From contig JAEOTA010000018.1 of NCBI GenBank assembly GCA_016840085.1, positions 32,001 through 96,000 of the forward strand: 64,000 nucleotides of DNA. Reading direction: 5' to 3'. Origin of the DNA: Promethearchaeota archaeon (GTDB lineage Archaea; Asgardarchaeota; Lokiarchaeia; Sigyniarchaeales; SOKP01). The notes under the pieces are model-generated. The model searched no databases, was not told the DNA's origin, and saw nothing but the letters and a program-made list of their open reading frames with translations. This document shows, piece after piece, positions 6,134-51,879 of this stretch. Position 1 is the first letter of the stretch. Every line of letters begins with the position of its first letter. The position numbers were made by a program, and so were the translations under genes.

Positions 6134-6607
6134 TTAATCTGTATCTATTTCGTATTCTAGTATTTTTTGTATTCTGTCTCTTAAATCTAACCTTATTGCC
6201 GACATCCCATAAGTACGAATTCCTAATTCTTTTTGAACTTGTTTAGCACTTAACACATCCGGAAGATCTTGTTTATTCGCTATGGCAATAATTTTAGAGT
6301 TTAAATAATGCGAAAATTTATCACATATCTCTTTTGTCTTCTCAACATTATCTTCGGTAGAATCACATACTACAACAGCTAAACCAGCCCCTCTTAAAAA
6401 ATCTGACCACATAAACCTATATCTCTCTTGCCCCCCAAAGTCCCAAATATTAACTTTCCTCCCGTTAAGGGCCGAATCCTCAATTTCTAATCCCACTGTT
6501 GGATTTTTTTCTTTTTTTACTTCTCGACCTTGAAGCAAGGATACCAATGACGATTTGCCGACCCCAGAAACCCCTAAAAGGCAAATTTTTTGTTTTGTTG
6601 TATAAAC
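6134..6607 (-). CDS. Arf-like small GTPase; true start lies upstream of the ORF-track start and is non-canonical (GTT at 6607 proposed)
   Basis: In-frame upstream extension KICLLGVSGVGKSS supplies the P-loop; NPTVG, WDFGGQ, NKQD, SA motifs; in-frame TGA at 6616-6614 bounds the frame. Confidence 0.85.
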   Translation of the reverse strand, partial: VYTTKQKICLLGVSGVGKSSLVSLLQGREVKKEKNPTVGLEIEDSALNGRKVNIWDFGGQERYRFMWSDFLRGAGLAVVVCDSTEDNVEKTKEICDKFSHYLNSKIIAIANKQDLPDVLSAKQVQKELGIRTYGMSAIRLDLRDRIQKILEYEIDTD

Positions 6608-6861
6608 TTTATGTCAACCCTTTCTAATGCTAAATTACGTTAATTAGAAAAGGCAAAAATATGTTCAAAAATTAAAATAATATTGACATGACATGGGAAT
6701 TTTATAAGTAAAATTCTAATAAATCAAATCTACTAATGGTATCGAGAAAAAATCCGCCCATATATTTCTCATATAGTCGTATAATATTTAAAAAGGAGAT
6801 CAAAAAATAAATTTTAAATATAATTGTAATCAAAAGAAAAAAATCAAAAAATAAAAACTAT

Positions 6862-8160
6862 TTAAGCCCCAGTTTCAATGTCTTTAACAATACCAACGGC
6901 CACGGTTCTTCCCATGTCCCGTACTGCAAAACGACCCATTTCTGGAATCTCTTCGTACTTTTCAAGACACATTTTCTTAATTGGTTGTAACTCAACTATT
7001 GCAGCTTCATTTCTCTTAAGAAACTTTGGATTATCTTCAATCACAGCACTAGTCTTTTGATCTAATTTTTTAGATAAAGCAGTAAATTTTGCAGCGATTT
7101 GAGCTGTGTGCGCATGAATTACAGGTGTATATCCTTGGGCTATTACTGTTGGATGCCAAATAACTATTATCTGACCTGTCCATTTTCCTTTTGGTGTAAT
7201 AACGGTTGGTGGATTTTTAGGATGCCCTAAACAATCACCACGCCCTGCATCTTGCAACGTGATACCTCTAATAGCAAAACCTATATTATCTCCCGGCACT
7301 GCTTGAGGAATCTCTTCATGATGCATTTCAATACTTCGGATTTCTCCTGTAAAACCAGTTGGCATTATGATGACTTGGTCGCCTTTCTTTAGCACTCCAG
7401 TTTCAACTCTACCAACAGGTACAACTCCAGTACCTTTTATCCTATAGGAATCTTGAATTGGTAATCTCAGTGGCTTATCAAGAGGTTTTTCAGGAACAAC
7501 GAACTTATCAATTGCATCAATTAATGTGGGACCATCATACCAAGGCGTTTTATCACTTTTCTTTGATAAGTTCTCCATTGCCATTCCACTCGTTGGCACA
7601 AAGGGCACATCTTTTAGCTTGAAACCGATATTTCTTAAGAGATCTCCAACTGACTCTTTGCATTCATTAAACCTATCCTCAGAGTAATCGTAAATATCAG
7701 CTTTATTCACAGCTACAACTATTTGTTTTACACCTAATGTTTGTGCTAAATATGCATGCTCTCGAGTTTGTCCATTGGCAGCAATTCCAACTTCCATTTC
7801 ACCTTTCTTACCAGAAACGACGAGAATAGCAGCATCAGCTTGAGACGCGCCAGTAATCATGTTCTTGACGAAGTCTGCGTGGCCTGGTGCATCAATAATG
7901 GTAAAATACCTATTTGGCGTTTCAAATTTTCTAAATGCGAGATCAATTGTAATCCCACGTTGTCTTTCTTCTTTTAATTTATCAAAGACGAAAGCATAAG
8001 ACCATGACTCTCTGTCGTATTCTTTAGCGAGTTTCTCTAACTCTCGAGCCTCTCTATCTGTTACTGCTCCTGTCTCAATGAGGAGCGCCCCCATCATGGT
8101 ACTCTTTCCGTGGTCAATGTGTCCAATAATTACCAAATTTAAATGGTCTTTTTCGGCCAT
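6862..8160 (-). CDS. tuf: Translation elongation factor EF-1alpha
   Basis: GHIDHGKST, RGITIDL, DAPGH, NKAD, GRFAVRDMGRTVAVG. Confidence 0.98.
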   Translation of the reverse strand: MAEKDHLNLVIIGHIDHGKSTMMGALLIETGAVTDREARELEKLAKEYDRESWSYAFVFDKLKEERQRGITIDLAFRKFETPNRYFTIIDAPGHADFVKNMITGASQADAAILVVSGKKGEMEVGIAANGQTREHAYLAQTLGVKQIVVAVNKADIYDYSEDRFNECKESVGDLLRNIGFKLKDVPFVPTSGMAMENLSKKSDKTPWYDGPTLIDAIDKFVVPEKPLDKPLRLPIQDSYRIKGTGVVPVGRVETGVLKKGDQVIIMPTGFTGEIRSIEMHHEEIPQAVPGDNIGFAIRGITLQDAGRGDCLGHPKNPPTVITPKGKWTGQIIVIWHPTVIAQGYTPVIHAHTAQIAAKFTALSKKLDQKTSAVIEDNPKFLKRNEAAIVELQPIKKMCLEKYEEIPEMGRFAVRDMGRTVAVGIVKDIETGA

Positions 8161-8401
8161 TTTCATCAATTTCTTTAATTTATTTTGAATAAAATTTTCT
8201 AATTTTTAATTATCAAATAAAATTATTTTTATTAGATGTTAATTTTAAATGTTGATGAGTTTATATTTTTTACTATAATTTATGGTGAATTTTTAGAGTT
8301 ATAGGTATTGACCTATATATTTAATATTATAATACTTTCTATTGGTTAAACCAAAAGAATTTTGGGTAGCTCTTTTTTCGAGTTTTTAATGTTATTACAT
8401 T

Positions 8402-8830
8402 TTAACTTTTTATATCGTACAACAGCTCTTGTTTATTTCTTCTTATTAATTGGAAGATTTGGTTAAGTTCTTCTTTAAAATTTACGTCTTTTCCTTCTGA
8501 ATCTGTAATACTAAATGGAATTTTATCTTCTAGAAATTTTTCAAACACAAGCTCAATATCATTAATATCGACGTAAGTCTCTTTAAAGAAATCTAATAAA
8601 TGATGTAAAAATAGAGCTTTAATATAATTATTATTTCTCTTACCTTTTCCATAAAAAAATTTTAATTGCTTAAAGATTAAATTATCATTATTTTCCTCGG
8701 CTTTAATATCTTTTTCTTCATTAAACATCCAATTAAATCCATAATCTACTGCTCTATTAACTAAATTAGCAATATCTTCTGAGATCCCTGCTTTTTTGGC
8801 CCATTTATTATGAATAAACCAATTTGGAAT
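8402..8830 (-). CDS. Hypothetical protein; N-terminus extends to a proposed ATT start (MPNWFIHNKWAKKAGI...)
   Basis: Frame stays open 34 codons upstream of ATG 8728 with a conserved-looking PxWxxHxKWA..GI segment; HHLLD motif downstream; in-frame TGA at 8842-8840 lies within an AAGTGA SD-like motif. Confidence 0.7.
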   Translation of the reverse strand: MPNWFIHNKWAKKAGISEDIANLVNRAVDYGFNWMFNEEKDIKAEENNDNLIFKQLKFFYGKGKRNNNYIKALFLHHLLDFFKETYVDINDIELVFEKFLEDKIPFSITDSEGKDVNFKEELNQIFQLIRRNKQELLYDIKS

Positions 8831-8955
8831 TTTACGAAATCACTTTAAATATATTTTCTTAGTTAAAAAGATAGTAAAAATAAAAAATTATAGATCTTTA
8901 ATTAAACAAAGGATTCGAAAAAAGAATTAAAATTCACAATAGATTAATTATTATT

Positions 8956-9777
8956 ATGGTCAAAACTAAAACAAAATTACCCAAGGAAGGAGAATTTGTA
9001 GTTGCTAAGGTAACTGAAATTCAAAATCAATATGTTTATGTAGATTTAATAGATTTTGAAGGTTTAGAATCTGAGGAATGTGCTAGAGGGATGATACACA
9101 TATCAGAAATTAGTTCTAGATGGATTAAGAATATCCGAAACTATGTTAGAATTGGACAAAGAATTGTATTACGAGTATTAAGAGTAGATCCTTCCAAAGG
9201 CCATGTAGATTTATCATTAAGAAGAGTAAATTCTGCACAGAGAGAAAACCGATTAAAGGAATGGAAGTATGCTGTGAAATACGAAATGCTCTTACAGTTT
9301 TTAACAGAAACAGAAGCCGTTAACATGACACTTGATGAAGCATATAATTTAATTGGATTTCCTATATTGGAATATTTTGATTCATATCAAGAAGCTATTG
9401 AAAGTTTAAAAGAAGCAGGAGAAGAAATTTTAAGTAATTTAAAAGATCTATCAGATCAGGTTAAATCAGCATTTTTAAAAATTGTAGATGAAAATGTAGA
9501 GATTTCCACAGTTAGTATTTCAGGAAAAGTGAAATTATCATTTAATGCAGAAAACGGGATAGATTATATTAAAGAATCATTATTAGAAGCTTTAAAAGTT
9601 ATTGAACCAAAAAAAACTCGCAATATTAACATAAATTATATAGCTGCTCCATTTTATAGATTAGAGATTGTATCTAAGGATTATTTGGATGCTGAAAATA
9701 TCTTATCAGATGCATTAGAAATTATTGAGCAAAAAACGGATGAATATAACGGTACTTGTGAGTTTATAAGGGAGTAG
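8956..9777 (+). CDS. eif2a: Translation initiation factor aIF2 alpha subunit
   Basis: LPKEGEFVVAKV S1 domain, IHISEISSRWIKNIR, KGHVDLSLRRV, YIAAPFYR. Confidence 0.96.
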   Translation: MVKTKTKLPKEGEFVVAKVTEIQNQYVYVDLIDFEGLESEECARGMIHISEISSRWIKNIRNYVRIGQRIVLRVLRVDPSKGHVDLSLRRVNSAQRENRLKEWKYAVKYEMLLQFLTETEAVNMTLDEAYNLIGFPILEYFDSYQEAIESLKEAGEEILSNLKDLSDQVKSAFLKIVDENVEISTVSISGKVKLSFNAENGIDYIKESLLEALKVIEPKKTRNININYIAAPFYRLEIVSKDYLDAENILSDALEIIEQKTDEYNGTCEFIRE

Positions 9778-9781
9778 AAAA

Positions 9782-9967
9782 ATGCCTAAATACCTCATGA
9801 AGTGTAAGGAATGTAATCGATACGGATTACTGAATTCTAAATCAAAATGTCGTTATTGTGGAGGACAATTAATAAATCCAAGACCTCCTAAATTTTCTTT
9901 AACAGATAAGTACGGTAAGTATCGTTTACAATACTTTAAGGAGGAATTTGATAAAAAATTTGAGTAA
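9782..9967 (+). CDS. nop10: H/ACA RNP protein Nop10
   Basis: CKEC...CRYCG Zn ribbon, PPKFSLTDKYGKYR; follows aIF2alpha. Confidence 0.93.
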   Translation: MPKYLMKCKECNRYGLLNSKSKCRYCGGQLINPRPPKFSLTDKYGKYRLQYFKEEFDKKFE

Positions 9968-9969
9968 AT

Positions 9970-10638
9970 TTAAGACAGCTCTATTTTTTCAGCAAACTTT
10001 TCATTCACAAGGATTATAGCATTCTGATAAGGAAGACATGCGATATCTTCTTCCGCAAAAGGTCCATAATTTAAAAGATCAATACCAACTAAAGGGGGAG
10101 TTTCCTTTAGAAATCGTACCACTATATATTCAATTTCGTCTTTTTTTTCTAAAATAAATTTATCTGAAATAACAGAAACATCTTCCTTGATAGATAAAGT
10201 AGCATTTTCGACCTTAATTTTCTCATCAGATTTAGTTTCTAATGGTTTTAAATCTTCTGAACTATCAATTTCCCCATAAATTGCGCCAGCTTTTACTTTT
10301 TTATAACCTTTAATAGAACTTATTAGATTTTGATAAAGGAGTTTCTCAGGCTCTATTACATCATTCAAATCTATTTCTTTTAGCACTAAAGCACAATTTA
10401 TTATTTTTCGTTCTCGAATCTTTAAAAGATCATTAAAAAGATAGTCAATGTTAGCTTTATATGATTCAAATATCTTTTCTTTTAAATCATCCTTTTGCCC
10501 TTCTTTGTAATTATTAATAAAACTAACAAATTTTTTATAATGATTGAATAACTCTTGGTTTAATTTTGTGAGTTCTGATTGTAGAAATTCTTTAACCCAA
10601 TGTTGATAAAGGTTCTCATAATCTGTTTTTAAGTCCAT
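9970..10638 (-). CDS. GINS complex subunit (Gins15/Gins51)
   Basis: Helical A domain (R.RKII) plus C-terminal B domain VRFLKETPPLVGIDLLNYGPF; downstream of priS. Confidence 0.85.
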   Translation of the reverse strand: MDLKTDYENLYQHWVKEFLQSELTKLNQELFNHYKKFVSFINNYKEGQKDDLKEKIFESYKANIDYLFNDLLKIRERKIINCALVLKEIDLNDVIEPEKLLYQNLISSIKGYKKVKAGAIYGEIDSSEDLKPLETKSDEKIKVENATLSIKEDVSVISDKFILEKKDEIEYIVVRFLKETPPLVGIDLLNYGPFAEEDIACLPYQNAIILVNEKFAEKIELS

Positions 10639-10699
10639 GAGTATCGAATCTAGTCACATTAATATTATTAACAAGTGTTTATGTTATTAAATTTTTAAC

Positions 10700-11974
10700 T
10701 CATATAGTTTTTGCTACTTCTCTACATAATAAAAACACCGCAATATGATGAGGAACTTCGATTATTTCACCTTTATTGTAAGGGCCAAATTCCTCTCCCT
10801 TTATTTTAGTCATTGGTACTTTAGTTTCTGTAATTTCTAATTTTTGAGATTTATTACTTTTAAACACAATTGGATCACACTTTTCATTTTTTTCATCTAA
10901 GGGATTAAAATCGTCAAATTCATCTGGGAATATCTCCTGAACTTTAAATCCTGTCTTGCCATGCAATGATCCTGGATATCTAATAAGTCTATGAATATCA
11001 ATCGTTACTGGTGTGTCAATTTCTATTCCAATCTCATGAACTATACCTGTTAAAAATTTATTCCATAAAGTTAATCCAAAACCTTCAATTGTCCATATAT
11101 TTTTATTATTTCTATTAATAATTTTTAAGAAATCATTTTTAAAACTAAGAAAACTTGTTATTAATTTTTGATTAAAATGAAATTTTCTTTTATCTAACAA
11201 TAAATTTTGAATTTCTAAATCAGGTTTTGTTAAGATCTCTTCAATTTTTTGAATAATTTTTTGACTCCATCCAATATTTTGTTTTGAAAAGCCAAATATA
11301 TTACCTCCTTTCTCTTGGAGACCTAAAATTTCAAATGATACATTTTCTCCTGTAAGGTAATCTGTGATTTCTCTTCTTTCTTCTGTAGATAAAGTTCTAA
11401 TCTTTTCATTTTCAATCTTTAAATGATATCCTCGATGACCAGAGAATGTAATTTTCATCTGATCTATGTCAATTCCAAAGTCTGGAATTAAGAAATTATA
11501 AATTAATCTCAGAATTTCATTCTTAGCTATCTTTAAACATTCTTCACATATCCAATTTAATCTACTTATTTTTAATTTATCACAGTATGGACACTTTCTT
11601 GGCATTCCCATCCCGGTTTTTCCACATTCTTTACAAGCCCAGAGATCATGATCTTCCTTACAAGGAGTATAAAAATGATCAACATCAATATCAATGATTA
11701 AATCACATCCTTGATAACCTTTGGATTCCATATTTTGATTTTCTGGTTGTGTATATATAGAACCACTCATATACGCATGACGTGGAGAATTACTTGTAAA
11801 ATAATTTCTTAGTGTTTCTTGAGAATTAAAACCGATATGCCTAATCATAAAGAATTTTTCCCAAGGGATAAAACCATACTCTCGCTGCTCAAAAAGGTTA
11901 ACTATAGGAATCTCAGATTGCTTTTCTTTATAATAAGCTTGAAATAAGCGTCTTAAATACGTTCTATCAATCAT
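10700..11974 (-). CDS. priS: DNA primase catalytic subunit PriS
   Basis: REYGF, DLIIDIDVD, FSGHRGYH, IDTPVTIDIHRLIRYPGSLHGKTG. Confidence 0.96.
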   Translation of the reverse strand: MIDRTYLRRLFQAYYKEKQSEIPIVNLFEQREYGFIPWEKFFMIRHIGFNSQETLRNYFTSNSPRHAYMSGSIYTQPENQNMESKGYQGCDLIIDIDVDHFYTPCKEDHDLWACKECGKTGMGMPRKCPYCDKLKISRLNWICEECLKIAKNEILRLIYNFLIPDFGIDIDQMKITFSGHRGYHLKIENEKIRTLSTEERREITDYLTGENVSFEILGLQEKGGNIFGFSKQNIGWSQKIIQKIEEILTKPDLEIQNLLLDKRKFHFNQKLITSFLSFKNDFLKIINRNNKNIWTIEGFGLTLWNKFLTGIVHEIGIEIDTPVTIDIHRLIRYPGSLHGKTGFKVQEIFPDEFDDFNPLDEKNEKCDPIVFKSNKSQKLEITETKVPMTKIKGEEFGPYNKGEIIEVPHHIAVFLLCREVAKTI

Positions 11975-13155
11975 TTTTTCTTTCGGGATTCATTTTTTAT
12001 AAAATTTTTTTTCGAAGATTTAAATTGATTAAATTGAACATAAAATAAAGGATGTGAAATCTGTTTTTGGACTGCTAGTTTTTTAGAAAAATATCCTTCT
12101 AAACAGAGAGTATCCTTATATTGTTTTGCCATGCATAAATTCATAGATTTTAAAGATTGACATGAATAGGGAGTATAACCCTTTTTAATTGCATATCTAA
12201 CTTGATAAGCTGTTTTATCTCTATCAAAATCAGGGAGTGATGAAAAAACGTTAATTATCTCATCTTCAGGATATTTAAGAGCATTTAAAAACCAAGTTAA
12301 AAAAAGTCGCTCAGTGTGTATTAGATTTTGTCCTTCTTTTATTTTAGTATGAATCTCTTTAATACAAGGAGGAAAATCTTTTGAAATATCCTTTCCTTTT
12401 TTAAATCCAACTTCAAAAGAATATTCAAATTCTTCTTTCATTAAATCCCATTTTGCATTTATCTTCTCAAAAATAGTTTTAAAATTTTGATTTTTGAATA
12501 ATTTATCTTTAAACCTACTTAAATTACGATTATCTCTCTTATTATTCATTATAAATTTATTTCGGACGTATTCTTGAATCAATCTATTAAGACTTTTAGA
12601 GGGGATAATTACATAACCATTAGATACAGGATTATTAACTAATTTTCGGAATTCATCTTTTAAACGAGATGATAATTTCAAATAATCAATAAAGTGAATT
12701 TTGAAATTTGTATCTTTTATTTCTATTTGATCTTTTAATATAATTTTCTTGTAAATGATTGGTTCTTGCTCATAAATAACATCTAAATTCAAATCTTGGT
12801 AAATATAATATAAATTATAATCACTTTCTTTATTCAATTCATTATAAGTAGTTTTTGAGTATATATTGGCAACTCTGTTAGTAATAACTTTATTATCTAA
12901 AACATATAATAGAATTCTTAACGATAAGTATAAGTAAATATTTATATCATCTTGGGTATAGTTAGGAAAAATTTCTACATTTTCAAAAGATAATTCGAAT
13001 ATATTTAAGATTCTTTTATTTACATCATAATGATTATCAGATGAGAATACTTCGTTTATAAAGTCGACGGGGTCTTTTGCTTCTATATCAGAATAATATT
13101 CTTTTAAAGAAGGGAGCCAAGGATAATGTTTAACTAATTCAAAAAGACCACTCAT
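11971..13155 (-). CDS. priL: DNA primase large subunit PriL
   Basis: FPPCIK, HTERLFL, PDFDRDKTAYQV, YSCQSL Fe-S domain. Confidence 0.93.
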   Translation of the reverse strand: MSGLFELVKHYPWLPSLKEYYSDIEAKDPVDFINEVFSSDNHYDVNKRILNIFELSFENVEIFPNYTQDDINIYLYLSLRILLYVLDNKVITNRVANIYSKTTYNELNKESDYNLYYIYQDLNLDVIYEQEPIIYKKIILKDQIEIKDTNFKIHFIDYLKLSSRLKDEFRKLVNNPVSNGYVIIPSKSLNRLIQEYVRNKFIMNNKRDNRNLSRFKDKLFKNQNFKTIFEKINAKWDLMKEEFEYSFEVGFKKGKDISKDFPPCIKEIHTKIKEGQNLIHTERLFLTWFLNALKYPEDEIINVFSSLPDFDRDKTAYQVRYAIKKGYTPYSCQSLKSMNLCMAKQYKDTLCLEGYFSKKLAVQKQISHPLFYVQFNQFKSSKKNFIKNESRKKK

Positions 13156-13308
13156 TGTTCAATAAAATTACTAAATTTAAGAATTATTATTTAGCTTCTA
13201 AAAAATTTGATGCTATTAAACTTTAATAAATTAAGAGTAAAAAGATTTAATGATAATTTTAATGAAACTATTAATTATGTAATAATTGAAAAGTAAAGAA
13301 AAAAACGA

Positions 13309-14112
13309 TTAGAATTCATCCATATCTTCATCTTCGTTAAATTCTTCTTCTTCTACTCGTGGTGCAAGGAAGTAATTTAATTCACCACCCTCAAGAAGAT
13401 CAAAATCCATCTTTAATGGATGATCAGTCTTTAATGATATCTCTAACTTTTCGGTAATTGAAGCAATCTTTAAAATGGCTTTTAGAAAAGTCAATGAATA
13501 TGCTCCTGTGCTAGTGTCGCTCAGGTTGCTTTCGATTAAATCATCTTCATTAAGATCATAGACCATTTCCCCTATTTGACCTGAGGAGCTAAAAACTAAC
13601 CCTTGTCCTTCGGTTGCATTTATATTGAGAATTTCCGAATAAATCTCTGCATCTTTAATAGCTTCAACTAAAAAGTTAGGTTCTATTACCCATTTTGAGG
13701 GATATTCTATTTCTAATAATCTATCCATGGGAATTTCCTCAATATCTATATCCAATAGAGCTAAGCTAAAAGTTCTAGTTCGAGAAACTCCTTCTCTTTG
13801 CATTTTTATTTTTATTTTTTGATCTACCTCTTTAAAATCAATTTCAACTGAATCATTAAGAGCACTTCTTTTTAGAATTTTATCTAAATCATCCAAATTC
13901 AGACCAACTTTAGAGTCTTTACTGCATTTATACTCATCGAAATTTTCTTTTTTAATTGAGAGTTTGAGTAAACATATTCGACTTGGATCCATTGCTGATA
14001 TTGTAAATTCTTTAGGAGTAACTCGAAATTCTGTTTCATCTATAATACTCGCAAGAGTTTCTACAATTCCTTTCAATATCCGACTATTTTCCAACTTTAA
14101 CGTAAAACTCAT
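13309..14112 (-). CDS. pcn: DNA sliding clamp PCNA
   Basis: AMDPSRICL, YSLTFL, YFLAPRVEEE. Confidence 0.97.
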   Translation of the reverse strand: MSFTLKLENSRILKGIVETLASIIDETEFRVTPKEFTISAMDPSRICLLKLSIKKENFDEYKCSKDSKVGLNLDDLDKILKRSALNDSVEIDFKEVDQKIKIKMQREGVSRTRTFSLALLDIDIEEIPMDRLLEIEYPSKWVIEPNFLVEAIKDAEIYSEILNINATEGQGLVFSSSGQIGEMVYDLNEDDLIESNLSDTSTGAYSLTFLKAILKIASITEKLEISLKTDHPLKMDFDLLEGGELNYFLAPRVEEEEFNEDEDMDEF

Positions 14113-16994: not shown

Positions 16995-17276
16995 TTATAC
17001 TTCTTGTAATTCAAAACGTTTTACACGATAAGATTTGGCATACTGTTTATTACCACATTCAGTACATTCTAAAATGGGAAGGCTCTTCTTATTAATTTTT
17101 GCATTCTTATGAAAAATTTCTTTAGGGAAACTTCCGTAACCTTTCTTATGACGTTCTACCCTTCTACGGCCTTGATTTAACATCCGTTCTTTTCCCTTTT
17201 TGTACAATGATACATTATGAATTTGATGAGAACGACATTTAGGGCAGTACCGTCGTATAGTCCGCGGGAATTTCAA
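16995..17276 (-). CDS. rpl44e: Ribosomal protein eL42 (L44e)
   Basis: RRYCPKCRSHQIH...KGYG...LECTECG; TTG start after GGTGG. Confidence 0.96.
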   Translation of the reverse strand: MKFPRTIRRYCPKCRSHQIHNVSLYKKGKERMLNQGRRRVERHKKGYGSFPKEIFHKNAKINKKSLPILECTECGNKQYAKSYRVKRFELQEV

Positions 17277-23660: not shown

Positions 23661-24089
23661 TTATCGTAAGGGTTTCTCCTTCTTTCCTTGAAGTAATGCC
23701 TCTAAGCTTACACCATTTACCTTAACTACCTTGTAACGAACACCAGGAAGATCTCCAATACTTCTCCCTTTTGCACCTCCAATCCCCTCAATTATAACCC
23801 GATCATGTTCTTCTATGAAGTTAAGCGCTCCATCTCCTGGAAGGAAGGCTGTTACACTTTTTCCATTCTTTTTCAATTGAACTCTTACACATTTTCTTAT
23901 CGCAGAATTAGGTTGTTTACTCTCTCTTCCCACCTTTTGTAATACGATGCCTAAAGCTTGGCATGCTCCTTCTAATGGATCTGCTTTTTGTTTTAGCTTG
24001 AGCTTCCTTCTTTTATATTTAGTTTTAGACCATTGAAATTTCTTTCGATTGGCTTTAAGTTTTCTCGCAGAGTAAAGTCCTTTTGGCAC
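23661..24089 (-). CDS. rps12: Ribosomal protein uS12
   Basis: [25 protein letters not shown]. Confidence 0.98.
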
Positions 24090-41050: not shown

Positions 41051-41257
41051 ATGGCAGCATTCGCTTGGTCTCCTTTGCGCGCTTTAATGAAGAAAGCAGG
41101 GGCTGAAATCGTAAGTCGCGCAGCGGTTGACAAATTAATGGATTTCTTAGAAGAGTACGCAAAAAATCTTACAGGATGCGCACTCGATATTGCTAAGCAT
41201 TCCGGAAGAAAGAAAGTAACTGCAGCAGATATGAAAATCGCTATTGGATTAGTTTAA
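41051..41257 (+). CDS. Archaeal histone (HMf-type histone fold, tailless)
   Basis: SPLRALMKKAGAEIVSRAA...AKHSGRKKVTAADM; GGAGG SD upstream. Confidence 0.95.
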   Translation: MAAFAWSPLRALMKKAGAEIVSRAAVDKLMDFLEEYAKNLTGCALDIAKHSGRKKVTAADMKIAIGLV

Positions 41258-41299: not shown

Positions 41300-41656
41300 T
41301 TAAATAATTTCTTTTTTTTTTTTATTTTCTTTTATACTATCTAAACAGTCGACACATATCCAACACTTGCCACTAGGAACATAATCCATATCCTTTATAC
41401 TAGAACTACAAACAGCACATAAACATATTGAATGTGTTAAAGCTCTATATAACATGTATCTCTCTTCCCTGACAGCTTTGAACCTTTTCATTTGAGAATT
41501 AGTCAAATTTATCTTAGAAAGATAAATATTACATAAAGAAGTAAGACGATTATACTCGTTCTCTGTAAATATTAAAAACAACTTTCTAAGATTATCTCTT
41601 ACTTTTCTTAACTTAGGATCTCTTATAACAACTAATTTACTAAAAATTGTTTCCAT
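41300..41656 (-). CDS. Hypothetical protein with C-terminal Cys cluster (probable Zn finger)
   Basis: SICLCAVC...DM...WICVDC. Confidence 0.75.
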   Translation of the reverse strand: METIFSKLVVIRDPKLRKVRDNLRKLFLIFTENEYNRLTSLCNIYLSKINLTNSQMKRFKAVREERYMLYRALTHSICLCAVCSSSIKDMDYVPSGKCWICVDCLDSIKENKKKKEII

Positions 41657-41808
41657 TCTCTTTTATTCCCTAATTCTTCTTCATTTACAATCTGAATAGG
41701 ATGGCCAGAATGTAATGAATCAAACATTTCCAATTTTTCTTTATTGATATAATTATCCTCAAGAATCGGTACATATTCATGACATTTAAAACATACTTTT
41801 AGCCTTAT
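41632..41808 (-). CDS. Small CxxC/HxxH putative Zn-binding protein with proposed ATA start (not in ORF track)
   Basis: 58 aa (I/M)RLKVCFKCHEYVPIL...LHSGHPIQIV...; GGAAGTGA SD 5 nt upstream; in-frame TAA immediately before the ATA; overlaps the next gene. Confidence 0.7.
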   Translation of the reverse strand: MRLKVCFKCHEYVPILEDNYINKEKLEMFDSLHSGHPIQIVNEEELGNKREWKQFLVN

Positions 41809-41963
41809 TTAAGTCACTTCCTTTCTTTATATTAATATTTGTACTCATGCTTATATATCGACACAGTTATAAAATAAATTTCCAAAAAGTAGTATGGAGA
41901 ATATATTAACACCATATCCTGATTTACTTAAATTTAATTTTTATTATTTACCTAAATTCTGAC

Positions 41964-43494: not shown

Positions 43495-43545
43495 TGAGTT
43501 TTCATTACGGTTTATTAAATTGAAAAAAAGAATTATTTTCTACTT

Positions 43546-45204
43546 TTATTTTTTTTTCTTTTCCATTCTCTTCTTTAAAGCATTCGATGATATTCTTGCT
43601 CTTTGCTGCCCCTTTGCTGCCCAATAACTCTTTGCTGGTGCTTGTGCGACTTCTTTTTCTTCCATTTCGATTTCTTCTAATTCGTCGTCTAAATAAGATA
43701 AGCCCTCTGTAAAATCTTGTTCAGCGAAAGACATATTTACTGATCGTAAGCGATTTAACTCATTCATCATTTCTTTTTTCAACCCTGTTAATCGGTTTTT
43801 CGATTCAGAAGCTTTTCCTGCATAATATCCAGTTCCAGCAGCTTGAATGTTCATCATTACGTTAAGTTTTTGGTCATATTCTGCCGTAAATTCATCCTCA
43901 TCTTTAGTAACCTTTACTTTATCGTTTATAACTCTCATTCTTTTTCGACCTTCAGTATCGAGATATTCTACTTGGAATTGAACAGGGATTTCTTCATGTT
44001 CTCTCAATTCCTTACTTGAATCTAGTTCTAAAAATAATTCTCTATCTTCTGTAATTGCTCCTAAATTTATTACTGATCCATCAATAGTACCTTTCGAACT
44101 ATAAGCCCCTGTAATGTTTTTTATCATTATGGTTGGTGGAGTGATAATTTTTACTTTAACATCTTTACCTATATATCTCATTTGTCTCATCTCTGAGAAA
44201 ATAGCCTCCATCTCTGAGCTTGAAATTAAATACAACATTCCCCCTGTCTTATCTGTGAGTTTTCCTAGAGTTTCAAGACCCATTTCATTATTATCTCCAG
44301 AAACTGATACTCCTACCACATCCACAATAATTTTAAATTCATTACATAAATCAGCCATATCCTCGTAAAATTTTTCTGCTCCAGGGCTTGTTCCTGAAAG
44401 ATTACCTATTCCTTGGTTTGCAAGACCATCAGTTAACAATGTTATTCTTCCAGTATATTTGAAAATTTCAAAAGAAACGATAGCAAAATATAATGCAGGA
44501 CCTAATGCTGTCATATCCATAGATCTAAGGTCTTCAACTGTTCTTATCCAACCATCAGCAAATTCGCTAATGGATCCTAAAAACTTTTCTTTCTTTGTGG
44601 ATTTTTTTAATTGGGCTTTCATACCTTCTAAAGAAAATAGTAATTCACCACTAAAATTTAATGGATTTTTATCGTATCTTAGATAATAATAAACTGAACT
44701 CTCAAATGCTATTAAAATATATTTAGTTGAAGGCGAGTTAATCTTAAAATCTTTTAAAGTTTGAACTAGAGATTTTTTTACGGCCTCAATTTTAGCCCCA
44801 CTCATACTCCCCGAGATGTCAATCACAGAAATATAGAGATCTCCCGCTGTAACATCCATTTTTGTTATTTTTTCTTCTTCTTTTGATTTTTTAGTTAAAG
44901 CTTCTATTAAAATAAAATCAATATCATTAGGTAATTTCTCCTTTACTTTAGATTTATCTACTATATTAATTGTCCCACAAAATTCACATATATAGTAAGA
45001 TCCTTTTTGTGTATCTACCTGAATTAAATCTATATCAGTAAAAATAGCACCACATGAATTACATTTAATAGGTTCATCTTTTGTCTCATATTTTGGTTTT
45101 CCAAGTTCTCTAAAAGCAATGGAATATAAATAGGGATATAATTCTTTTTTAGATGGTTTTTTAGAAAGAAATTTTTTAAATGCTCTATTAAACATAAATT
45201 TCAC
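43546..45204 (-). CDS. Sec23/Sec24-like protein: Zn finger + vWA + beta-sandwich + helical domain
   Basis: PIKCNSCGA...YICEFCGTIN zinc finger, VIDISGSMSG MIDAS, TALGPAL, LLTDGLANQGIG, TGG. Confidence 0.8.
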   Translation of the reverse strand: MKFMFNRAFKKFLSKKPSKKELYPYLYSIAFRELGKPKYETKDEPIKCNSCGAIFTDIDLIQVDTQKGSYYICEFCGTINIVDKSKVKEKLPNDIDFILIEALTKKSKEEEKITKMDVTAGDLYISVIDISGSMSGAKIEAVKKSLVQTLKDFKINSPSTKYILIAFESSVYYYLRYDKNPLNFSGELLFSLEGMKAQLKKSTKKEKFLGSISEFADGWIRTVEDLRSMDMTALGPALYFAIVSFEIFKYTGRITLLTDGLANQGIGNLSGTSPGAEKFYEDMADLCNEFKIIVDVVGVSVSGDNNEMGLETLGKLTDKTGGMLYLISSSEMEAIFSEMRQMRYIGKDVKVKIITPPTIMIKNITGAYSSKGTIDGSVINLGAITEDRELFLELDSSKELREHEEIPVQFQVEYLDTEGRKRMRVINDKVKVTKDEDEFTAEYDQKLNVMMNIQAAGTGYYAGKASESKNRLTGLKKEMMNELNRLRSVNMSFAEQDFTEGLSYLDDELEEIEMEEKEVAQAPAKSYWAAKGQQRARISSNALKKRMEKKKK

Positions 45205-45303
45205 TAATTTAGAAGTTTAAATTGTTAATAAAAAATGGATAATAAATAATTTTGTAAGGTTTAAATAAAAAAGAATCTTAATCCCAAAACCTTTGCTAGG
45301 CAG

Positions 45304-45338
45304 TCTTCGAACGTCTCATTTTTTTACATGCGAATCAT
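45304..45338 (-). promoter_or_regulatory. Eukaryote-type SECIS element (AUGA-AA-GA)
   Basis: AUGA-UUCGCAUGU-AAAAAAAUGAG-ACGUUCGAA-GA beginning just after the stop codon; 8 of 9 upper-stem positions pair. Confidence 0.8.
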
Positions 45339-45340
45339 TC

Positions 45341-45873
45341 TTATTTGGGATTTATTAAATATTTATCAATAATTTTAATCATCATTTCTATTGTAGGTCT
45401 ATCTGTCTTATCTTTACCAATATATTTCCAAATAATTTTACCATCTTTATTAATTAAGAACTTACTAGGCACAGCTTGTTTTATCTTATAATCTAAGCCC
45501 GCAACAGGGGCAAACCAGTATGCATCATATTGTTTAGCAATTTTAGCTCCACGATCGGAAATAATATCAACATTAAACTCGTTATCTTCTTTGAATTTTG
45601 TCAAAAGTCTAGCACTATCGCTTGCTATCGATATTAACTTAATCTTTCGCTTGTTAAATTCAGAAATATGTTCCGTTAATAGTTTTAAATGTGCTTTGCA
45701 ATGACTTCACCAATTTCCTCTAAAAAAGTCGATTAGTACACCATTAAACTTTTTGAGAAGGTCATTAAGATTTATAGGATTATCGTATATATTTACAGTA
45801 TCTATCAAGGGAGCTTTAGTCTCTATATCTAATCTTTAGGTCTTGGAGGTTCTTCAGCATTCATTTTACTCAT
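45341..45873 (-). CDS. Peroxiredoxin-like (AhpC/TSA) selenoprotein, UxxC; apparent 1-nt frameshift near the 5' end
   Basis: Frame upstream of the ORF-track start reads KAPLIDT...GVLIDFFRGNW[TGA 45709-45707]SHCKAHL...SIASD...IISD...PSKFLINKDGKIIWKYIG; the ATG at 45873 is in a different frame. Confidence 0.85.
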
Positions 45874-46063
45874 CTCTTTCTTTTTACATATAATTTTTAC
45901 GAATATAAGATGCAGATACAATCAGAAATTATAAATATACGTCTTTAAAAATATAATCTTTCTCCCCGAAGTTTGTAATTCTAAGCAAACAACTCTAAAA
46001 ACTGCCTCAATTTAAGTTTTACTTAAATCTAAGAGAGTGAACTAAAAAAGTCTATATTTATTT

Positions 46064-46597
46064 TTATTTAGAGTATCTTTCAAAAAGGATTTCTGTCATA
46101 TCATAGAACGATTTCTCAACATTTTCTCCTGTTTTCGAAGATAATTCAATAAAAGAAGTAAGATTATATTTTTTGGTCGCTAATATGCCATCTTCGGTTG
46201 GTACTGCTCTAAACTCATCCAAGTCTAATTTTGAGCCAATTAACATTATTGGAATATCACCTGCATTCTCTCTAACTATTTGGGTCCAATCAGGGAGATG
46301 ATCTAATGAAATTTGATTAGTAATGTCAAATAAGAAGAAAGCACCATTTGCTCCCTTACAATATTGAGATAGCAAGAATCGAAATCTCTCTTCACCACCA
46401 AAATCCCAAATTTGCAGTTTAACTTTATTATCAATGAAATCAATTGTCTTACTATAGAAATCAACCCCTATAGTTAACTTTAGATCCTCCATAAAAAATC
46501 CAGAAATATATCTAAGGGTGAGTGACGTTTTCCCAACAGAAGCATCTCCTAACATCAAGATTTTATAAGTAAAATCGTAACTGGTCATTTTTTTCAA
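46064..46597 (-). CDS. Rab-like small GTPase
   Basis: GDASVGKT, TIGVDF, WDFGGEERFR, SKLD, SSK. Confidence 0.95.
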   Translation of the reverse strand: MKKMTSYDFTYKILMLGDASVGKTSLTLRYISGFFMEDLKLTIGVDFYSKTIDFIDNKVKLQIWDFGGEERFRFLLSQYCKGANGAFFLFDITNQISLDHLPDWTQIVRENAGDIPIMLIGSKLDLDEFRAVPTEDGILATKKYNLTSFIELSSKTGENVEKSFYDMTEILFERYSK

Positions 46598-46734
46598 TGG
46601 ATAGGCAGCGAAATAATTTCTAATTATATTATAAAATTTTAGAAAAATTCACTTTAAAAATATAATATTATTATAACCTTATTATAATTAATTTTTGCTA
46701 AATTTAAATGTATTATTTTCAAATAAAGCAGATA

Positions 46735-47376
46735 TTATAGAATTAAAATAAGAATATTAAAACAAGAATGTGCAATTGAACAAGGAATTAATGAATAATC
46801 AAAATAGACAAAAATCGTTGCCAATAAGATGCCAAATGAAAAATAATAACCAAAATAAGTCATAATGGTTGTGAACGGCACTAAAAACAGAGGAACATGG
46901 TAAAAAGAAAAAAAAAATGATGAAATAATGATTGAGAGACTAATTTTTATTTTTTGATTTAATTTCTTTATTAAAAAGCCTCTAAAAAAAGCTTCTTCAC
47001 AAGGACCTATTATTAATAATTGTAAACTTATCAAAATTATTATTTGACCTATATTAGGGTGTGTAGGAGTTGTACTTATCGCGCTTTCTTGCCCCTCTTG
47101 TACAAACTGAGCACCAAAAATATTTTCAACTATAATATTTCTAAAAAAAAACATAAGATACACTGAGGAGAAGAAAAATAAAATTCCAAATCCTAATCCC
47201 GCGATTACCTTTATAAAAATATCTTCATTTTTTTGAAATCCCATCTCAACTATAACTTCTTTAAAACGTTTTTTTTCAATTTTACTCGAAATAAAGGCAG
47301 GTAATAGAACAAATAAAATTTCAAGGCATGTTAAGACGATTAAAATCCATGGATTTTCTCCTAAATTAATGGTCAT
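46735..47376 (-). CDS. CPBP (CAAX protease-like) intramembrane metalloprotease
   Basis: EEAFFRG, FSFYH, AHSCFN; ATG at 47376 preferred. Confidence 0.88.
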   Translation of the reverse strand: MTINLGENPWILIVLTCLEILFVLLPAFISSKIEKKRFKEVIVEMGFQKNEDIFIKVIAGLGFGILFFFSSVYLMFFFRNIIVENIFGAQFVQEGQESAISTTPTHPNIGQIIILISLQLLIIGPCEEAFFRGFLIKKLNQKIKISLSIIISSFFFSFYHVPLFLVPFTTIMTYFGYYFSFGILLATIFVYFDYSLIPCSIAHSCFNILILIL

Positions 47377-47468
47377 AATAGTTTGATAACTTTTCTTTAA
47401 ACTTCTAAAAATCAAAAAATTGAATATCTCATTATTATTATTTTTATCTCTAATTTTTTGTTCTTTTA

Positions 47469-48749
47469 ATGACAATTCGAAACAACTTTATTGACATTGA
47501 AAATAAAGATTTAAATTTTCTTTCAAGAGAAAAAAAAGTAAAAAACAATTTCGGATTTACAAAAGAACAGCTTCTACTTAATAATTTAAAAGCTCTAGCC
47601 AAAGAATATAAAGAGCTTGAAAAATTGAAAAATGATTTTTCTAAAATTATTTTAAAAAATTTAAGGAATTTAGATTTTTCGAGATTAATAGATTATCCAA
47701 GGTTTTATATTAAAGAGAAATTTCTGAAAAAAGCAGTTACAGCCTCTAACATCACAGGATTAAATGTTATTAGTGTTGATGGAAGCTCAGTCTCGAAAAA
47801 GTTTATGAATGTAGATTTCTCATTTTTAAAAGCTATTGCGGTTAAATATTATTTCAAAAAAAATACAGTTGCTAACATCAAATACTATCCTGATTTAAAT
47901 GGTTTCAATAATTATTTTGTTCAAGGAAATTTCTTTAATCGAGATGAAAATGCGGTAGATACTAAGATCTCAATGGATATGAGACATATGGAAATTAATT
48001 TGTTAAATAATGTAATTGAAAGATCTTCTGATACTGATGTGATTATTATTGATGGACCAATCGTTATTACTCCCATTAATTTATTATTTTCAAAAGATCC
48101 TGAAATTTCTAAAAGATATGATGATTTATTAAAAGAATATCATAAATTATACTCATTTTGTAAGGATGAAGGAATAATTTTAATTGGCTCAATTAAAGAT
48201 ACGAGAACATCAGCTTTATCAAATCTTTTATCTGAAGCAATTCAATTATTAAAATCTAATCATTCCAATTTAGCAGATTTCATCAAACTTAATTATCGGC
48301 ATATAATCGAATTTTTCTCTGATATAGATTTGTTTAATCGATTATTAGAAAATAACGAGAGAAGCTGTATTTTTAATTGTAAAAATGAAATTGATAAGAT
48401 CAGAGATACAGGCATTAAAAAAGAAATCCCTTATTATTTTCCTCTCTCCTTTTATGCCTTTTATCTGAAAACCGCAAGATACGACACTCCTTGCAGAATA
48501 GAGTTTTTTATGGACGAAACTCATTCGATTAAAAAAGCTTCTGAAAAAGCTGACCTAATTACTTCAATATTACTACCAATATCAAGTCTAAATGAGCACT
48601 ACGGCTTACCAATTCCCCAAATCGAAGCTCATAAGCGAGCTGTATTTAAAAAAAATGAAGTAGATCTTTTATTCAATAATTTAATCAGAACTTTGAGTAA
48701 GTATGGTATTACACTATTAGAGAAAAGAAGAAATAGAAGACCATTTTAG
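47469..48749 (+). CDS. nurA: NurA-family 5'-3' nuclease
   Basis: SVDGSS, IIIDGP, GSIKD, YGLPIPQIEAHKRA. Confidence 0.85.
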   Translation: MTIRNNFIDIENKDLNFLSREKKVKNNFGFTKEQLLLNNLKALAKEYKELEKLKNDFSKIILKNLRNLDFSRLIDYPRFYIKEKFLKKAVTASNITGLNVISVDGSSVSKKFMNVDFSFLKAIAVKYYFKKNTVANIKYYPDLNGFNNYFVQGNFFNRDENAVDTKISMDMRHMEINLLNNVIERSSDTDVIIIDGPIVITPINLLFSKDPEISKRYDDLLKEYHKLYSFCKDEGIILIGSIKDTRTSALSNLLSEAIQLLKSNHSNLADFIKLNYRHIIEFFSDIDLFNRLLENNERSCIFNCKNEIDKIRDTGIKKEIPYYFPLSFYAFYLKTARYDTPCRIEFFMDETHSIKKASEKADLITSILLPISSLNEHYGLPIPQIEAHKRAVFKKNEVDLLFNNLIRTLSKYGITLLEKRRNRRPF

Positions 48750-49441
48750 CTTTTAAGACATTTTAATCTGTGTAAAAAAATATCTTCAAAGAAATAATGT
48801 TTTTTTTCTATTATTTCGTTATTATATCCTAATTTCATGATTTTTTTACTTAAATCCTCAATTATAGTTCTGCTAGAGCTTAAGCAATATATATAATGTT
48901 CTTTACCTAAGTTTAGAAACTCTTTTGCTTCTTTAAGGAACTGTATTAATATTTCAAATCCTTTTAATCCACCATCCCAACTATAATCAATAAGTTGTTT
49001 ATTTTTTCTATTTTTAATATATTCTGAGGAGGGTAAATATGGTGGATTAAAAATAATTATGTTAAAAGATGATTTCAATTTATCAGGAAAAGATTTAAAT
49101 AAATCTGATTGCAAAAATATAATTTCATTGTTGAAGTTATTTAGCATTTCATTTTCTTTAGCACACGTTATTGCATCTTCTAAAATATCAGATGCAAATA
49201 TCCTTGGATTAAAGTTTTGGTTTTGAGATTTTATCAATTGAAGAAAAATAGCTATAATTCCAGTTCCAGTACCCAGATCTAAAACATTCTCAATTTCACT
49301 TAATTCAATTCCATCAAAATAATTATCATTAATCTTTTTTTTGAAATACTCAATCAATAAAAAGGAATCCTGTGAAGGATAATATACCTTCTCATGATCA
49401 CATTCGATTAAAGGATCCGTTATAAAATAAAAAGTGATCAT
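48746..49441 (-). CDS. HemK2/Mtq2 release-factor glutamine methyltransferase
   Basis: VYYPSQDSFLL, DLGTGTG, FNPPYLP, WDGG. Confidence 0.92.
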   Translation of the reverse strand: MITFYFITDPLIECDHEKVYYPSQDSFLLIEYFKKKINDNYFDGIELSEIENVLDLGTGTGIIAIFLQLIKSQNQNFNPRIFASDILEDAITCAKENEMLNNFNNEIIFLQSDLFKSFPDKLKSSFNIIIFNPPYLPSSEYIKNRKNKQLIDYSWDGGLKGFEILIQFLKEAKEFLNLGKEHYIYCLSSSRTIIEDLSKKIMKLGYNNEIIEKKHYFFEDIFLHRLKCLKS

Positions 49442-49458
49442 CTCGTTTTAATAATTTT

Positions 49459-50295
49459 TTAAGTATAAAAGAGGCTGCTTATGTCTATTAAGTCTTCTAT
49501 GGGGTAACTGAAAATTTTTTTGTTTCCGTAGTTTTTTTCTTGCAATATGCTTGAAATTCTTTCTTTGTTATAATTATTATCATTAATCGCTTTAAAAAAC
49601 ATTACTAATGCATTTACGATATTTTTATTTTTGTAGGGCATGATCCCCGCTATAAATTTTAAGAAGAAAGAAGCTCTTTTTTTTTCTAATAAAAATGTAT
49701 GTAATTCTTCCTTTGGAACTAATTTAATTAGATTTAAATCGATTTTTGGAGCAGGATAAAAGCTATTTCGGGAAACGTCATGCTTTAATACTGGTTTCAA
49801 GTAGGCATTCACACCAACGCTAATTCTAGAAAATTCTTTATAACTTCCAGTTAAAAAGATTCGATTTGTGATACTTTTTTCAATAATCAATACTCCTTGG
49901 GAGGGAGCTTGGTTGAAAAATACTTTCTCAAAGAGAGGACCCGTGATTGTATATGGAATATTCGATATCACTTTATTATGTGAAGGAATATCCATTTTTA
50001 AGATATCACAGTTTATAATTTCACAGTTGTTATATACCGAAAATTTTTCTGAGAGAAATTTATAAAGAATAGAGTCAATTTCAATAGCATATACTTTTTT
50101 GGCTTTTTTAATTAAGGGTTCGGTTAAGGCGCCTAAACCGGGTCCAATTTCTAAAATAGTATCATCTTTTGAGACTTCAGATAATAAAATTATTTTTTTT
50201 AATAAATTATCATCAATTAAAAAATTTTGACTTAGATGCTTTTTAGGTCGTAAATTTAATTTGTTTAGAGTAAGCTTTACTTCTGTATAATTCAT
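49459..50295 (-). CDS. rsmA: 16S rRNA adenine dimethyltransferase KsgA/Dim1
   Basis: KKHLSQNFL, LEIGPGLGALT, NIPYTIT, FYPAPKID. Confidence 0.95.
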   Translation of the reverse strand: MNYTEVKLTLNKLNLRPKKHLSQNFLIDDNLLKKIILLSEVSKDDTILEIGPGLGALTEPLIKKAKKVYAIEIDSILYKFLSEKFSVYNNCEIINCDILKMDIPSHNKVISNIPYTITGPLFEKVFFNQAPSQGVLIIEKSITNRIFLTGSYKEFSRISVGVNAYLKPVLKHDVSRNSFYPAPKIDLNLIKLVPKEELHTFLLEKKRASFFLKFIAGIMPYKNKNIVNALVMFFKAINDNNYNKERISSILQEKNYGNKKIFSYPIEDLIDISSLFYT

Positions 50296-50300
50296 TTTAA

Positions 50301-50951
50301 TTATTCATATTTCTGAGTTTTACTGAACAGGTAATATTTTACATCTCTCGAAAGTTCTTTAATAATTCTTTGTGCGATAAGTTTAGTAGGGTGAGAAATA
50401 CTTGTTCTATCAGCAATATCTTGAAAGTTACCAAATTTTTGTCTTTCTCTTGCCTCAAGAAGCTCCCACATATGCTTTTGTCCAATCCCAGGCAATAATT
50501 TTAAAGCATGCATCCGAGGAGTAATAGAAGTGGAATTGTTGAAGAAATTGATGAACTCTTCTTCAAATTTTAATACTTCTTTTTCTAGAATTGGTTGAAT
50601 AAGTGCTTTTGAAGTGGTAGTTAGATCATTATAATTAATCTTTTTCAAAACGTCTCTTAATTTATCTTCATTTAAGAATTCTTCATACGTTTTTTGTTCT
50701 TGGACTTGAATATCAGAGTTTTTATTTACCTTTACCTCATAAAGAACAAAATCTGGAAAAGTTAGAACTTGAGCTATTGGTGTTTTTGCCCAACTAGGCT
50801 TATCTTCTTCGGGATGACCATGAATTAATACATCTAATATAACAACATCCCGAAATTTTTTTATAAATTGTTTTTTTTTCTTTGGACCTCCTCGATAGGG
50901 TCTTCTCCGGGGAGGACCTCTGTACCGCTCTCTTCTTTCCATCTTTACCAA
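50301..50951 (-). CDS. DUF655 putative RNA-binding protein
   Basis: FFNNSTSITPRMHALKLLPGIGQK HhH motif; conserved position between rpoF and ksgA. Confidence 0.9.
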   Translation of the reverse strand: MVKMERRERYRGPPRRRPYRGGPKKKKQFIKKFRDVVILDVLIHGHPEEDKPSWAKTPIAQVLTFPDFVLYEVKVNKNSDIQVQEQKTYEEFLNEDKLRDVLKKINYNDLTTTSKALIQPILEKEVLKFEEEFINFFNNSTSITPRMHALKLLPGIGQKHMWELLEARERQKFGNFQDIADRTSISHPTKLIAQRIIKELSRDVKYYLFSKTQKYE

Positions 50952-51088
50952 TTATCTTCCTTTCTACTTTTCCAATAACCATTTCAAAATTTTAATTTTT
51001 ATAAACTAACTCTATGAGTAAGGATAGCTCATTGAATTTAAAACAATTTAGACTTATTAATTTTACTATAAAGAAATTATAATTATAG

Positions 51089-51454
51089 TTAAGATGTTTT
51101 TATATCTTCTATACTCTCCAATATCACTTCTAATTGTTCGTCATCTAACGTTTTTCCAACAAAGGATTTCTCTAATATCATTCTTAACTCTGGAACGGAT
51201 TGCGGGTCTATGTTTACGATGTTAATTGCGTAGATTTCCTCAATTTCATAATCATTTATCAAAAATTTTATAATTTTTTTTGCTGTTCGAGCATCAATCT
51301 TTGCGAACTTGTTTACATAATTATACGTAATTTCTTGAAAGTGCGACATTCCCTCCTCAGAATCAATTTCTAGCATTTTTTCTTTTACATATTCCATAAT
51401 CTCCTTTACTTCTGGAATAGAAACTGTTCTCTCGTCTTTCTTTCTTCCTGACAT
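51089..51454 (-). CDS. rpoF: RNA polymerase subunit F (Rpo4)
   Basis: VSIPEVKEI...YVNKFAK...IVNIDPQSVPELR; operon context. Confidence 0.9.
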   Translation of the reverse strand: MSGRKKDERTVSIPEVKEIMEYVKEKMLEIDSEEGMSHFQEITYNYVNKFAKIDARTAKKIIKFLINDYEIEEIYAINIVNIDPQSVPELRMILEKSFVGKTLDDEQLEVILESIEDIKTS

Positions 51455-51475
51455 ATTTGTGCTACCTATTGAGAT

Positions 51476-51787
51476 TTATTCTTTATTTACAGAAATAGGA
51501 TTTAATCTTAAATGATCTTTCCCAATTATTAAGGTTTTTTTTGATCTCCCCAATTTAAGTTCCACCAAATAACAACGCCCTCTTTGACCTATAACTGTCC
51601 CTGTGCGACCATGATATCTGGAATGAGGCATTCCACGCACATGAACAGAGGGATCGGTAATTATATCTACTTTATCATTGATTTTGTAATCTATCAGATA
51701 TTTTTCAACTGAACCTAACCCTCTTTTGCGAACATTTTTCCTGTGCTTGTGTCTAGTCTTTTTTCTATACCCTTTATGGAGAGTAAT
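51476..51787 (-). CDS. rpl21e: Ribosomal protein eL21 with non-canonical ATT start (not in ORF track)
   Basis: HKGYRKKTRH...DKVDIITDPSVHVRGMPHSRYHGRTGTVIGQRGRCY...HLRL; lies between pus10 and rpoF. Confidence 0.95.
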   Translation of the reverse strand: MTLHKGYRKKTRHKHRKNVRKRGLGSVEKYLIDYKINDKVDIITDPSVHVRGMPHSRYHGRTGTVIGQRGRCYLVELKLGRSKKTLIIGKDHLRLNPISVNKE

Positions 51788-51879
51788 AATAATACACCAA
51801 ATATTTAGTTTAATAGAAGTATGAATAATAGTTTATTTATTTTTTGATTTTATATCTATGTAAATATCAAAAACAGAAC

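Follow-up and report, generated by a model that had tools for sequence, protein, structure and literature searches.

In Escherichia coli, infC and pcnB are translated from near-cognate codons behind a Shine-Dalgarno (SD) motif, and the gene of a proofreading factor itself starts with AUU (10.1101/063800; PMC2830850). Here we describe a comparable situation in an archaeon, based on a 64,000-nt stretch (positions 32001-96000 of contig JAEOTA010000018.1, termed the window) of a Lokiarchaeia metagenome bin of 4.68 Mb with 29.5% GC and 7.6% contamination. Four protein genes of the window, encoding ribosomal protein eL21, an Arf-like GTPase, a small zinc (Zn) protein and a hypothetical protein, probably begin at ATT, ATA or GTT, and the archaeal initiation factor aIF1 of the same genome is encoded by a gene with an ATT start. 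The E. coli case differs in scale, with two confirmed genes against an estimated 150-300 here, and in machinery, with IF3/IF2 there and aIF1/aIF2 here; moreover, translational autoregulation of IF3 is established, whereas for aIF1 we infer a feedback.

Other bacteria offer further likenesses. In Staphylococcus aureus, an extended SD supports the weak codon of infC, ccpN, citZ (AUA) and cvfC1 (AUU), and conserved non-canonical starts limit expression (PMC13009471). In Streptomyces, sigR starts with GTC and is repressed by IF3 (PMC5472188); this conserved GTN codon, two mismatches from AUG and placed on a regulatory gene, is the closest precedent for the GTT of the Arf-like gene, although sigR encodes a sigma factor of a high-GC bacterium and the gene here a small GTPase with an SD-covering hairpin. 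The four S. aureus genes were established by ribosome profiling and reporters and the sigR mechanism was tested, whereas the archaeal starts are deduced from DNA, involve many more genes and include free codon switching on eL21. Deinococcus likewise places core genes on near-cognates, among them a ribosomal protein (dnaA, ATC; rpsL, CTG; PMC2830850), but only four genes are concerned, dnaA and rpsL have peptide evidence, and the codon is conserved where that of eL21 changes repeatedly.

Outside bacteria, the ribosomes of Haloferax volcanii show that archaea can start at near-cognates (PMC7261190), although those were novel or alternative peaks set aside by the authors and not the sole start of conserved genes. 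Eukaryotic eIF1, the ortholog of aIF1, has a deliberately weak start in its own gene (cited in PMC6237735), there a poor-context AUG reached by scanning instead of a non-AUG codon behind an SD. Our literature search, with most subscription papers outside its range, returned no report on Asgard start codons. Judged from its sequence, the present case carries the features of SD-directed near-cognate initiation of the infC/pcnB/ccpN type, and it departs from the bacterial class in scale, in domain of life and in free switching on a ribosomal protein.

Four genes of the window and their orthologs

The original prediction named four coding frames with coding-like N-termini and no conventional start codon, and all four motif and codon strings were found where it placed them:

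51476..51787, minus strand: ribosomal protein eL21 gene, 103 codons, ATT start at 51787
51794..51798, minus strand: SD-like GGTGT of eL21, ATT start 6 nt downstream
8402..8830, minus strand: hypothetical protein gene, 142 codons, ATT start at 8830
8840..8845, minus strand: SD-like AAGTGA of the hypothetical protein gene, ATT 9 nt downstream; the TGA of the motif closes the frame
41632..41808, minus strand: small CxxC (Zn) protein gene, 58 codons, ATA start at 41808
41814..41821, minus strand: SD-like GGAAGTGA of the Zn protein gene, ATA 5 nt downstream
6134..6607, minus strand: Arf-like small GTPase gene, 157 codons, GTT start at 6607
6614..6621, minus strand: SD-like AGGGTTGA of the Arf-like gene, GTT 6 nt downstream; the TGA of the motif closes the frame

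What the DNA shows directly is each reading frame, its N-terminal boundary and the codon at its start position, and in none of the four genes does an ATG, GTG or TTG (together NTG below) stand between the upstream in-frame stop and the conserved N-terminus. This stop lies 15 codons upstream of the start in eL21, 3 in the hypothetical protein, 2 in the Arf-like gene and 0 in the Zn protein gene, where the ATA abuts an in-frame TAA, while the first in-frame NTG is codon 50, 35, 21 and 26, respectively. The SD spacing of 5-9 nt falls within the genome-wide distribution (peak 5-7 nt), and the SD contexts are comparable to those of two local starts, the GTG of rps12 at 24089 and a TTG at 17276.

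The single-copy eL21 gene matches PF01157 from residue 3 and NF003303 above its cut-off, and the ATT at 51787 is the third of three tandem ATT codons, a choice fixed by ortholog position. Across 30 genomes of the genus the start codon is ATA in 12, ATC in 6, ATT in 4, TTG in 4, CTG in 3 and ATG in 1, with GGTG before the start in most orthologs and often an in-frame stop upstream. The resulting start-codon diversity (0.78) is higher than that of the synonymous sites of eL21. The eL21 tree is poorly resolved, and the switches were therefore left uncounted; nor do we read the rarity of ATG as selection against it, since AT-biased drift gives the same rarity. The hypothetical protein has ATT in 22 orthologs and ATA in 4, with ATC/ATA one codon earlier in two further loci, and its start-codon diversity of 0.41 equals that of its Ile sites. 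At the start of the Zn protein, orthologous loci carry ATA and ATG six times each, and of its three paralogs elsewhere in the genome (L070, L071, L072) two have ATA and one ATG. This 58-residue protein has a match in only 8 of 45 genus genomes and none in Pfam or NCBIfam; an archaeal histone gene lies near it (window 41051-41257, plus strand).

In the Arf-like gene the GTT is present at 30 of 30 genus loci (diversity 0), while distant syntenic orthologs show TTG, TTG, GTG, TTG and GTA at the same position, from which many database orthologs also begin. Homologs of this protein mostly carry the label Promethearchaeota, one of them Loki_b32, as expected for a Lokiarchaeia-type Asgard archaeon. 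The Pfam match runs from residue 4, and the P-loop lies upstream of the first in-frame TTG; standard gene calling thus drops it, the database form of the window protein being 137 aa without a P-loop (P0001), which bears out the expectation that such genes would be hidden or truncated in annotations.

For all four genes, then, orthologs carry start-type codons only at these positions. TTA never occurs there, although at internal Met sites it is the commonest replacement (127, against ATA 123 and ATT 101), which indicates a start site and not merely a hydrophobic residue. The four genes are very probably intact and translated from the near-cognate codons, as far as their sequences allow us to judge.

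Probable near-cognate starts across the genome and the family

Three genome-wide tests add to the orthologs in support of the relaxed, SD-positioned start selection that had been proposed from the window. The first is an expectation-maximization (EM) start model in which all non-NTG codons received the same prior. In about 60% of genes it learned the motif AAGGTGA, spaced 5-7 nt from the start, as likewise seen in sister-family genomes. It assigned ATG to 65-67% of starts, TTG to 10%, ATT to 5%, ATA to 3.5%, GTG to 3%, ATC to 1.6% and CTG to 0.7%. Among 1429 confident SD-led starts there were 85 near-cognates (ATT 33, ATA 25, ATC 12, CTG 11, ACG 4) and 7 other non-NTG codons. At a posterior above 0.6 the near-cognate genes numbered 208, and 144 under strict criteria; control codon sets under the same criteria as the 208 returned 11, 5 and 5 genes. 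About 88% of the near-cognate calls are ATT, ATA or ATC (ATH). For such calls a comparison of SD strength among start classes is circular, and it was kept out of the evidence.

The second test, free of the model, looked at 90 long frames whose first 20 codons lack NTG and whose edge has an SD core nearby; the other frames supplied the expectation. In-frame near-cognates 4-9 nt behind the SD core numbered 83 against 11.4 expected, while the control spacing of 14-19 nt gave 30 against 28.4, and the most frequent SD distance was 6 nt for ATH, like the 6-7 nt of ATG. The third test, a search for conserved N-termini lacking NTG as had been proposed, used orthologs from three genus genomes and found conservation upstream of any NTG in 29 of 486 genes; 23 of them received an ATH call, and selenocysteine (Sec) or frameshifts account for a few. 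The 29 include genes that need ATT/ATC and that we take, from their sequence, to be eS26-like and uL16-like.

Where a relative starts with ATG, this genome has ATG 196 times, TTG 8, GTG 4, ATT 3 and no other codon, 46 shifted starts aside. Near-cognate starts for the most part remain non-ATG in orthologs, with a near-cognate in 18 of 26 cases, GTG/TTG in 3 and ATG in 1. We estimate that near-cognate starts account for 4-7% of genes, with an upper figure near 10% from the EM mixture.

Near-cognates make up 7-16% of strict SD-led starts in five genomes of this family and 2-5% in three sister-family genomes and one Thorarchaeon. Leaving out the present genome, the contrast is 19/189 against 5/169 (Fisher p = 0.01), a figure drawn from small samples, namely 200-400 kb segments of related genomes that are not independent. 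The habit is thus enriched in this Lokiarchaeia family, at about three times the sister rate, and not unique to it.

This distribution bears on the strongest competing explanation, an ordinary prokaryotic leak in weakly expressed genes with no lineage-specific relaxation, for which a similar rate would be expected elsewhere. The leak has to accommodate a single-copy eL21 whose start alternates between six codons within the genus, eS26-like and uL16-like genes that also need ATT/ATC, and a near-cognate share of strict SD-led starts of about 10% as opposed to 3% (p = 0.01, with the same dependence among kin), while bacterial surveys found just 2-4 genes per genome. In its favor, the sister family and the Thorarchaeon also yield a few cases, leak rates are 1-2% in E. 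coli and, in S. aureus, 10-30% where the SD is long (10.1101/063800; PMC13009471), and about 30% of novel initiation peaks in H. volcanii are near-cognate (PMC7261190). On balance we regard an ordinary leak as unlikely, though it deserves to be taken seriously.

Initiation factors, initiator tRNA and the Arf-like leader

The gene that draws most attention within the initiation machinery is that of aIF1, which acts as a fidelity (proofreading) factor in Pyrococcus abyssi and Sulfolobus solfataricus (PMC6237735):

contig C81, L129:1426-1740: aIF1/SUI1 gene, ATT start

A stop lies two codons upstream of this ATT, and no NTG occurs before the zinc knuckle. The ATT is found at 21 of 21 readable loci of the genus (diversity 0), and in five other genera of the family the start is ATT, ATC or ATA. 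Elsewhere among the Asgards it is often CTG in Thorarchaeia and ATA in Baldrarchaeum and some other families, while two relatives in the sister family have TTG/ATG. ATG is the start in leader types that lack a clear SD, and in 58 of 66 loci not labelled Asgard; one Hadarchaeota locus has CTG (L372). The invariance within the genus is suggestive, but not decisive on its own, as one of the eight conserved Ile codons of aIF1 is equally invariant. Among initiation factors the weak start is peculiar to aIF1: both aIF1A genes, aIF2 alpha, beta and gamma, and aIF5B all begin with ATG.

The original prediction had pointed to fidelity residues of the initiation factors as a place to look, and no defect of the machinery was found there. 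The basic loop and QGDH motif of aIF1, the C-terminal Arg of uS9, Sua5, aIF1A, aIF2 and aIF5B are all present and look ordinary. One initiator tRNA was found, of standard type with A1-U72, three G-C pairs and a CAU anticodon; no second initiator-like tRNA appeared in a tRNA set that is incomplete owing to introns. Some features of these genes are worth recording: the initiator tRNA gene contains an intron and is followed, about 1 kb downstream and in the same orientation, by aIF2 beta (L322, contig C22, about 50200-51800); aIF2 gamma (L326, contig C60) has an N-terminal extension of about 110 residues before the GTPase domain, resembling a helix-hairpin-helix domain with a Lys/Pro-rich linker; and the two full-length aIF1A paralogs (L323, contig C60; L324, contig C43) have long basic N-terminal tails.

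Decoding could also be broadened to AUN by a wobble modification of the initiator tRNA, instead of by relaxed proofreading; 5-formylcytidine in animal mitochondria is the model for such a modification. The 88% share of ATT, ATA and ATC would suit it. The CTG, ACG and GTT/GTA starts are left unexplained, however, the rank order of codons fits a generic near-cognate set weighted by AT bias, and the single initiator tRNA is a standard one. As for a recoding of AUA, ATA (123) is no more frequent at internal Met sites than TTA or ATT, which gives no hint of AUA being read as Met, and a tRNA modification is itself invisible in DNA. We consider the wobble explanation improbable. A-to-I editing was discarded, as it could convert only ATA.

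The Arf-like gene adds an element of its own, located downstream of the aEF1A gene:

6617..6654, minus strand: leader RNA hairpin of the Arf-like gene, 10-bp stem with arms 6654-6645 and 6626-6617

The 3' arm of this hairpin overlaps the SD, and the GTT may become part of an extended stem, so that the invariance of the codon is perhaps partly structural. The leader folds better than its shuffled versions (z = -3.18, 0/200 shuffles), and a consensus stem recurs across 35 loci, its substitutions being G-U-tolerant, with a few double changes; Rfam gave no match. Leader structure was rejected as a general feature of these starts, the Arf leader being the only one that folds better than shuffles.

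For the Arf-like gene alone, translation might instead begin at an upstream TTG with readthrough of the TGA, or at the ATT of codon 8. In a few orthologs (P0006-P0008, L034) an extension of 16 codons is indeed open, codon 8 is the first residue of several NCBI proteins, and a gene with a Sec-type TGA is present in this genome. The upstream frame is nevertheless broken by extra stops or indels in this genome and in many orthologs, and the hairpin accounts for its apparent conservation. Codons 2-7 change synonymously while the protein they encode is maintained, and sister orthologs carry TTG/GTG exactly at the GTT position. We rate this alternative as improbable, slightly more so than a tRNA modification.

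Mini-frames precede the Zn, hypothetical and Arf genes, and ribosomes might start at a GTG/TTG within the SD, stop early and restart at the adjacent weak codon; with a mini-frame stop near the start in 34% of near-cognate and 35% of ATG starts (p = 0.92), such reinitiation is highly improbable. Sequencing or assembly errors or pseudogenes, which a metagenome bin with its contamination might suggest, can be dismissed, as foreseen, by the same or interchangeable codons at the ortholog positions of all four genes, seen in as many as 30 independent genomes for a single gene, and by intact frames in which synonymous sites vary freely.

A proposed mechanism and its consequences

The explanation we favor, relaxed start selection directed by the SD, would work as follows. 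An AAGGTGA-type SD would set the small subunit so that the codon 5-9 nt downstream occupies the P site, where the single ordinary CAU initiator tRNA would be accepted with one mismatch from AUG (AUU, AUA, AUC, CUG, ACG) or from GUG (GUU, GUA), and the protein would begin with Met. Low stringency in the family would let AT-biased mutation turn ATG into ATT, ATA or ATC in about 4-7% of genes with a good SD, including those of ribosomal proteins, with ATG still preferred overall (65-73%), while a minority, namely aIF1 and the Arf-like GTPase, would keep their weak start unchanged to hold back expression. We give this explanation as a whole a probability of about 0.8.

Several points weigh against it, in addition to the small and related samples of the family contrast. 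Initiation at these codons is deduced from DNA, and SD pairing from the learned motif, the 16S rRNA not being in this assembly. The EM model yields false positives, and for two of the four window starts its top call lay elsewhere. In Thorarchaeia, aIF1 has a CTG start, yet the segment examined holds almost no other cases. The low stringency also comes without a lesion to explain it, because aIF1, the initiator tRNA, the uS9 tail and Sua5 are normal. Finally, E. coli has the infC feedback and yet only two confirmed AUU genes (10.1101/063800), hence aIF1 feedback alone does not predict 5%.

A feedback of the infC/eIF1 kind is a natural inference here, because aIF1 proofreads starts and its own gene begins with ATT. 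As the likeliest setter of stringency, surplus aIF1 would reject its own ATT start, and its level would stay where AUU initiation works; we lean slightly toward such autoregulation. It is a tentative and rather doubtful further step to regard aIF1 as a stringency rheostat, with the fixed near-cognate genes, including eukaryote-like GTPases, forming an aIF1-tuned regulon. If true, the rheostat would be an SD-based forerunner of the eukaryotic eIF1 control of non-AUG initiation. The suggestion that these starts may be regulatory has partial support: those of aIF1 and the Arf-like GTPase are fixed, beyond what synonymous sites within these genes show, and look selected, whereas those of eL21 and the hypothetical protein vary in a way that looks like tolerated drift.

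For annotation, an estimated 150-300 proteins per genome of the family would be truncated or missed by gene callers restricted to ATG, GTG and TTG, with losses that include ribosomal proteins, aIF1 and the P-loop of eukaryote-like GTPases and that would affect Asgard gene inventories and structure work. An eL21 on interchangeable AUA/AUC/AUU/CUG would imply that proofreading in the P site is unusually loose among the close relatives of eukaryotes, and an AUU-started aIF1 opens the origin of eIF1 autoregulation to testing. The SD-like motif in about 60% of genes contrasts with reviews in which SD is rare in Lokiarchaea, a statement that goes back to a single genome (PMC7531240; PMC12993045).

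No fifth near-cognate start was confirmed in the window. Two EM calls, at 46642 and 32454, proved false and were dropped, and a candidate at 45700 is instead a case of Sec-type TGA. It concerns an AhpC/TSA-type redoxin (45341-45800, minus strand) in which a CxxC-like motif has an in-frame TGA (45709-45707) as its first position. This TGA is conserved in three orthologs, and the redoxin is probably a selenoprotein of which the called open reading frame (TTG at 45604) is a truncated form.

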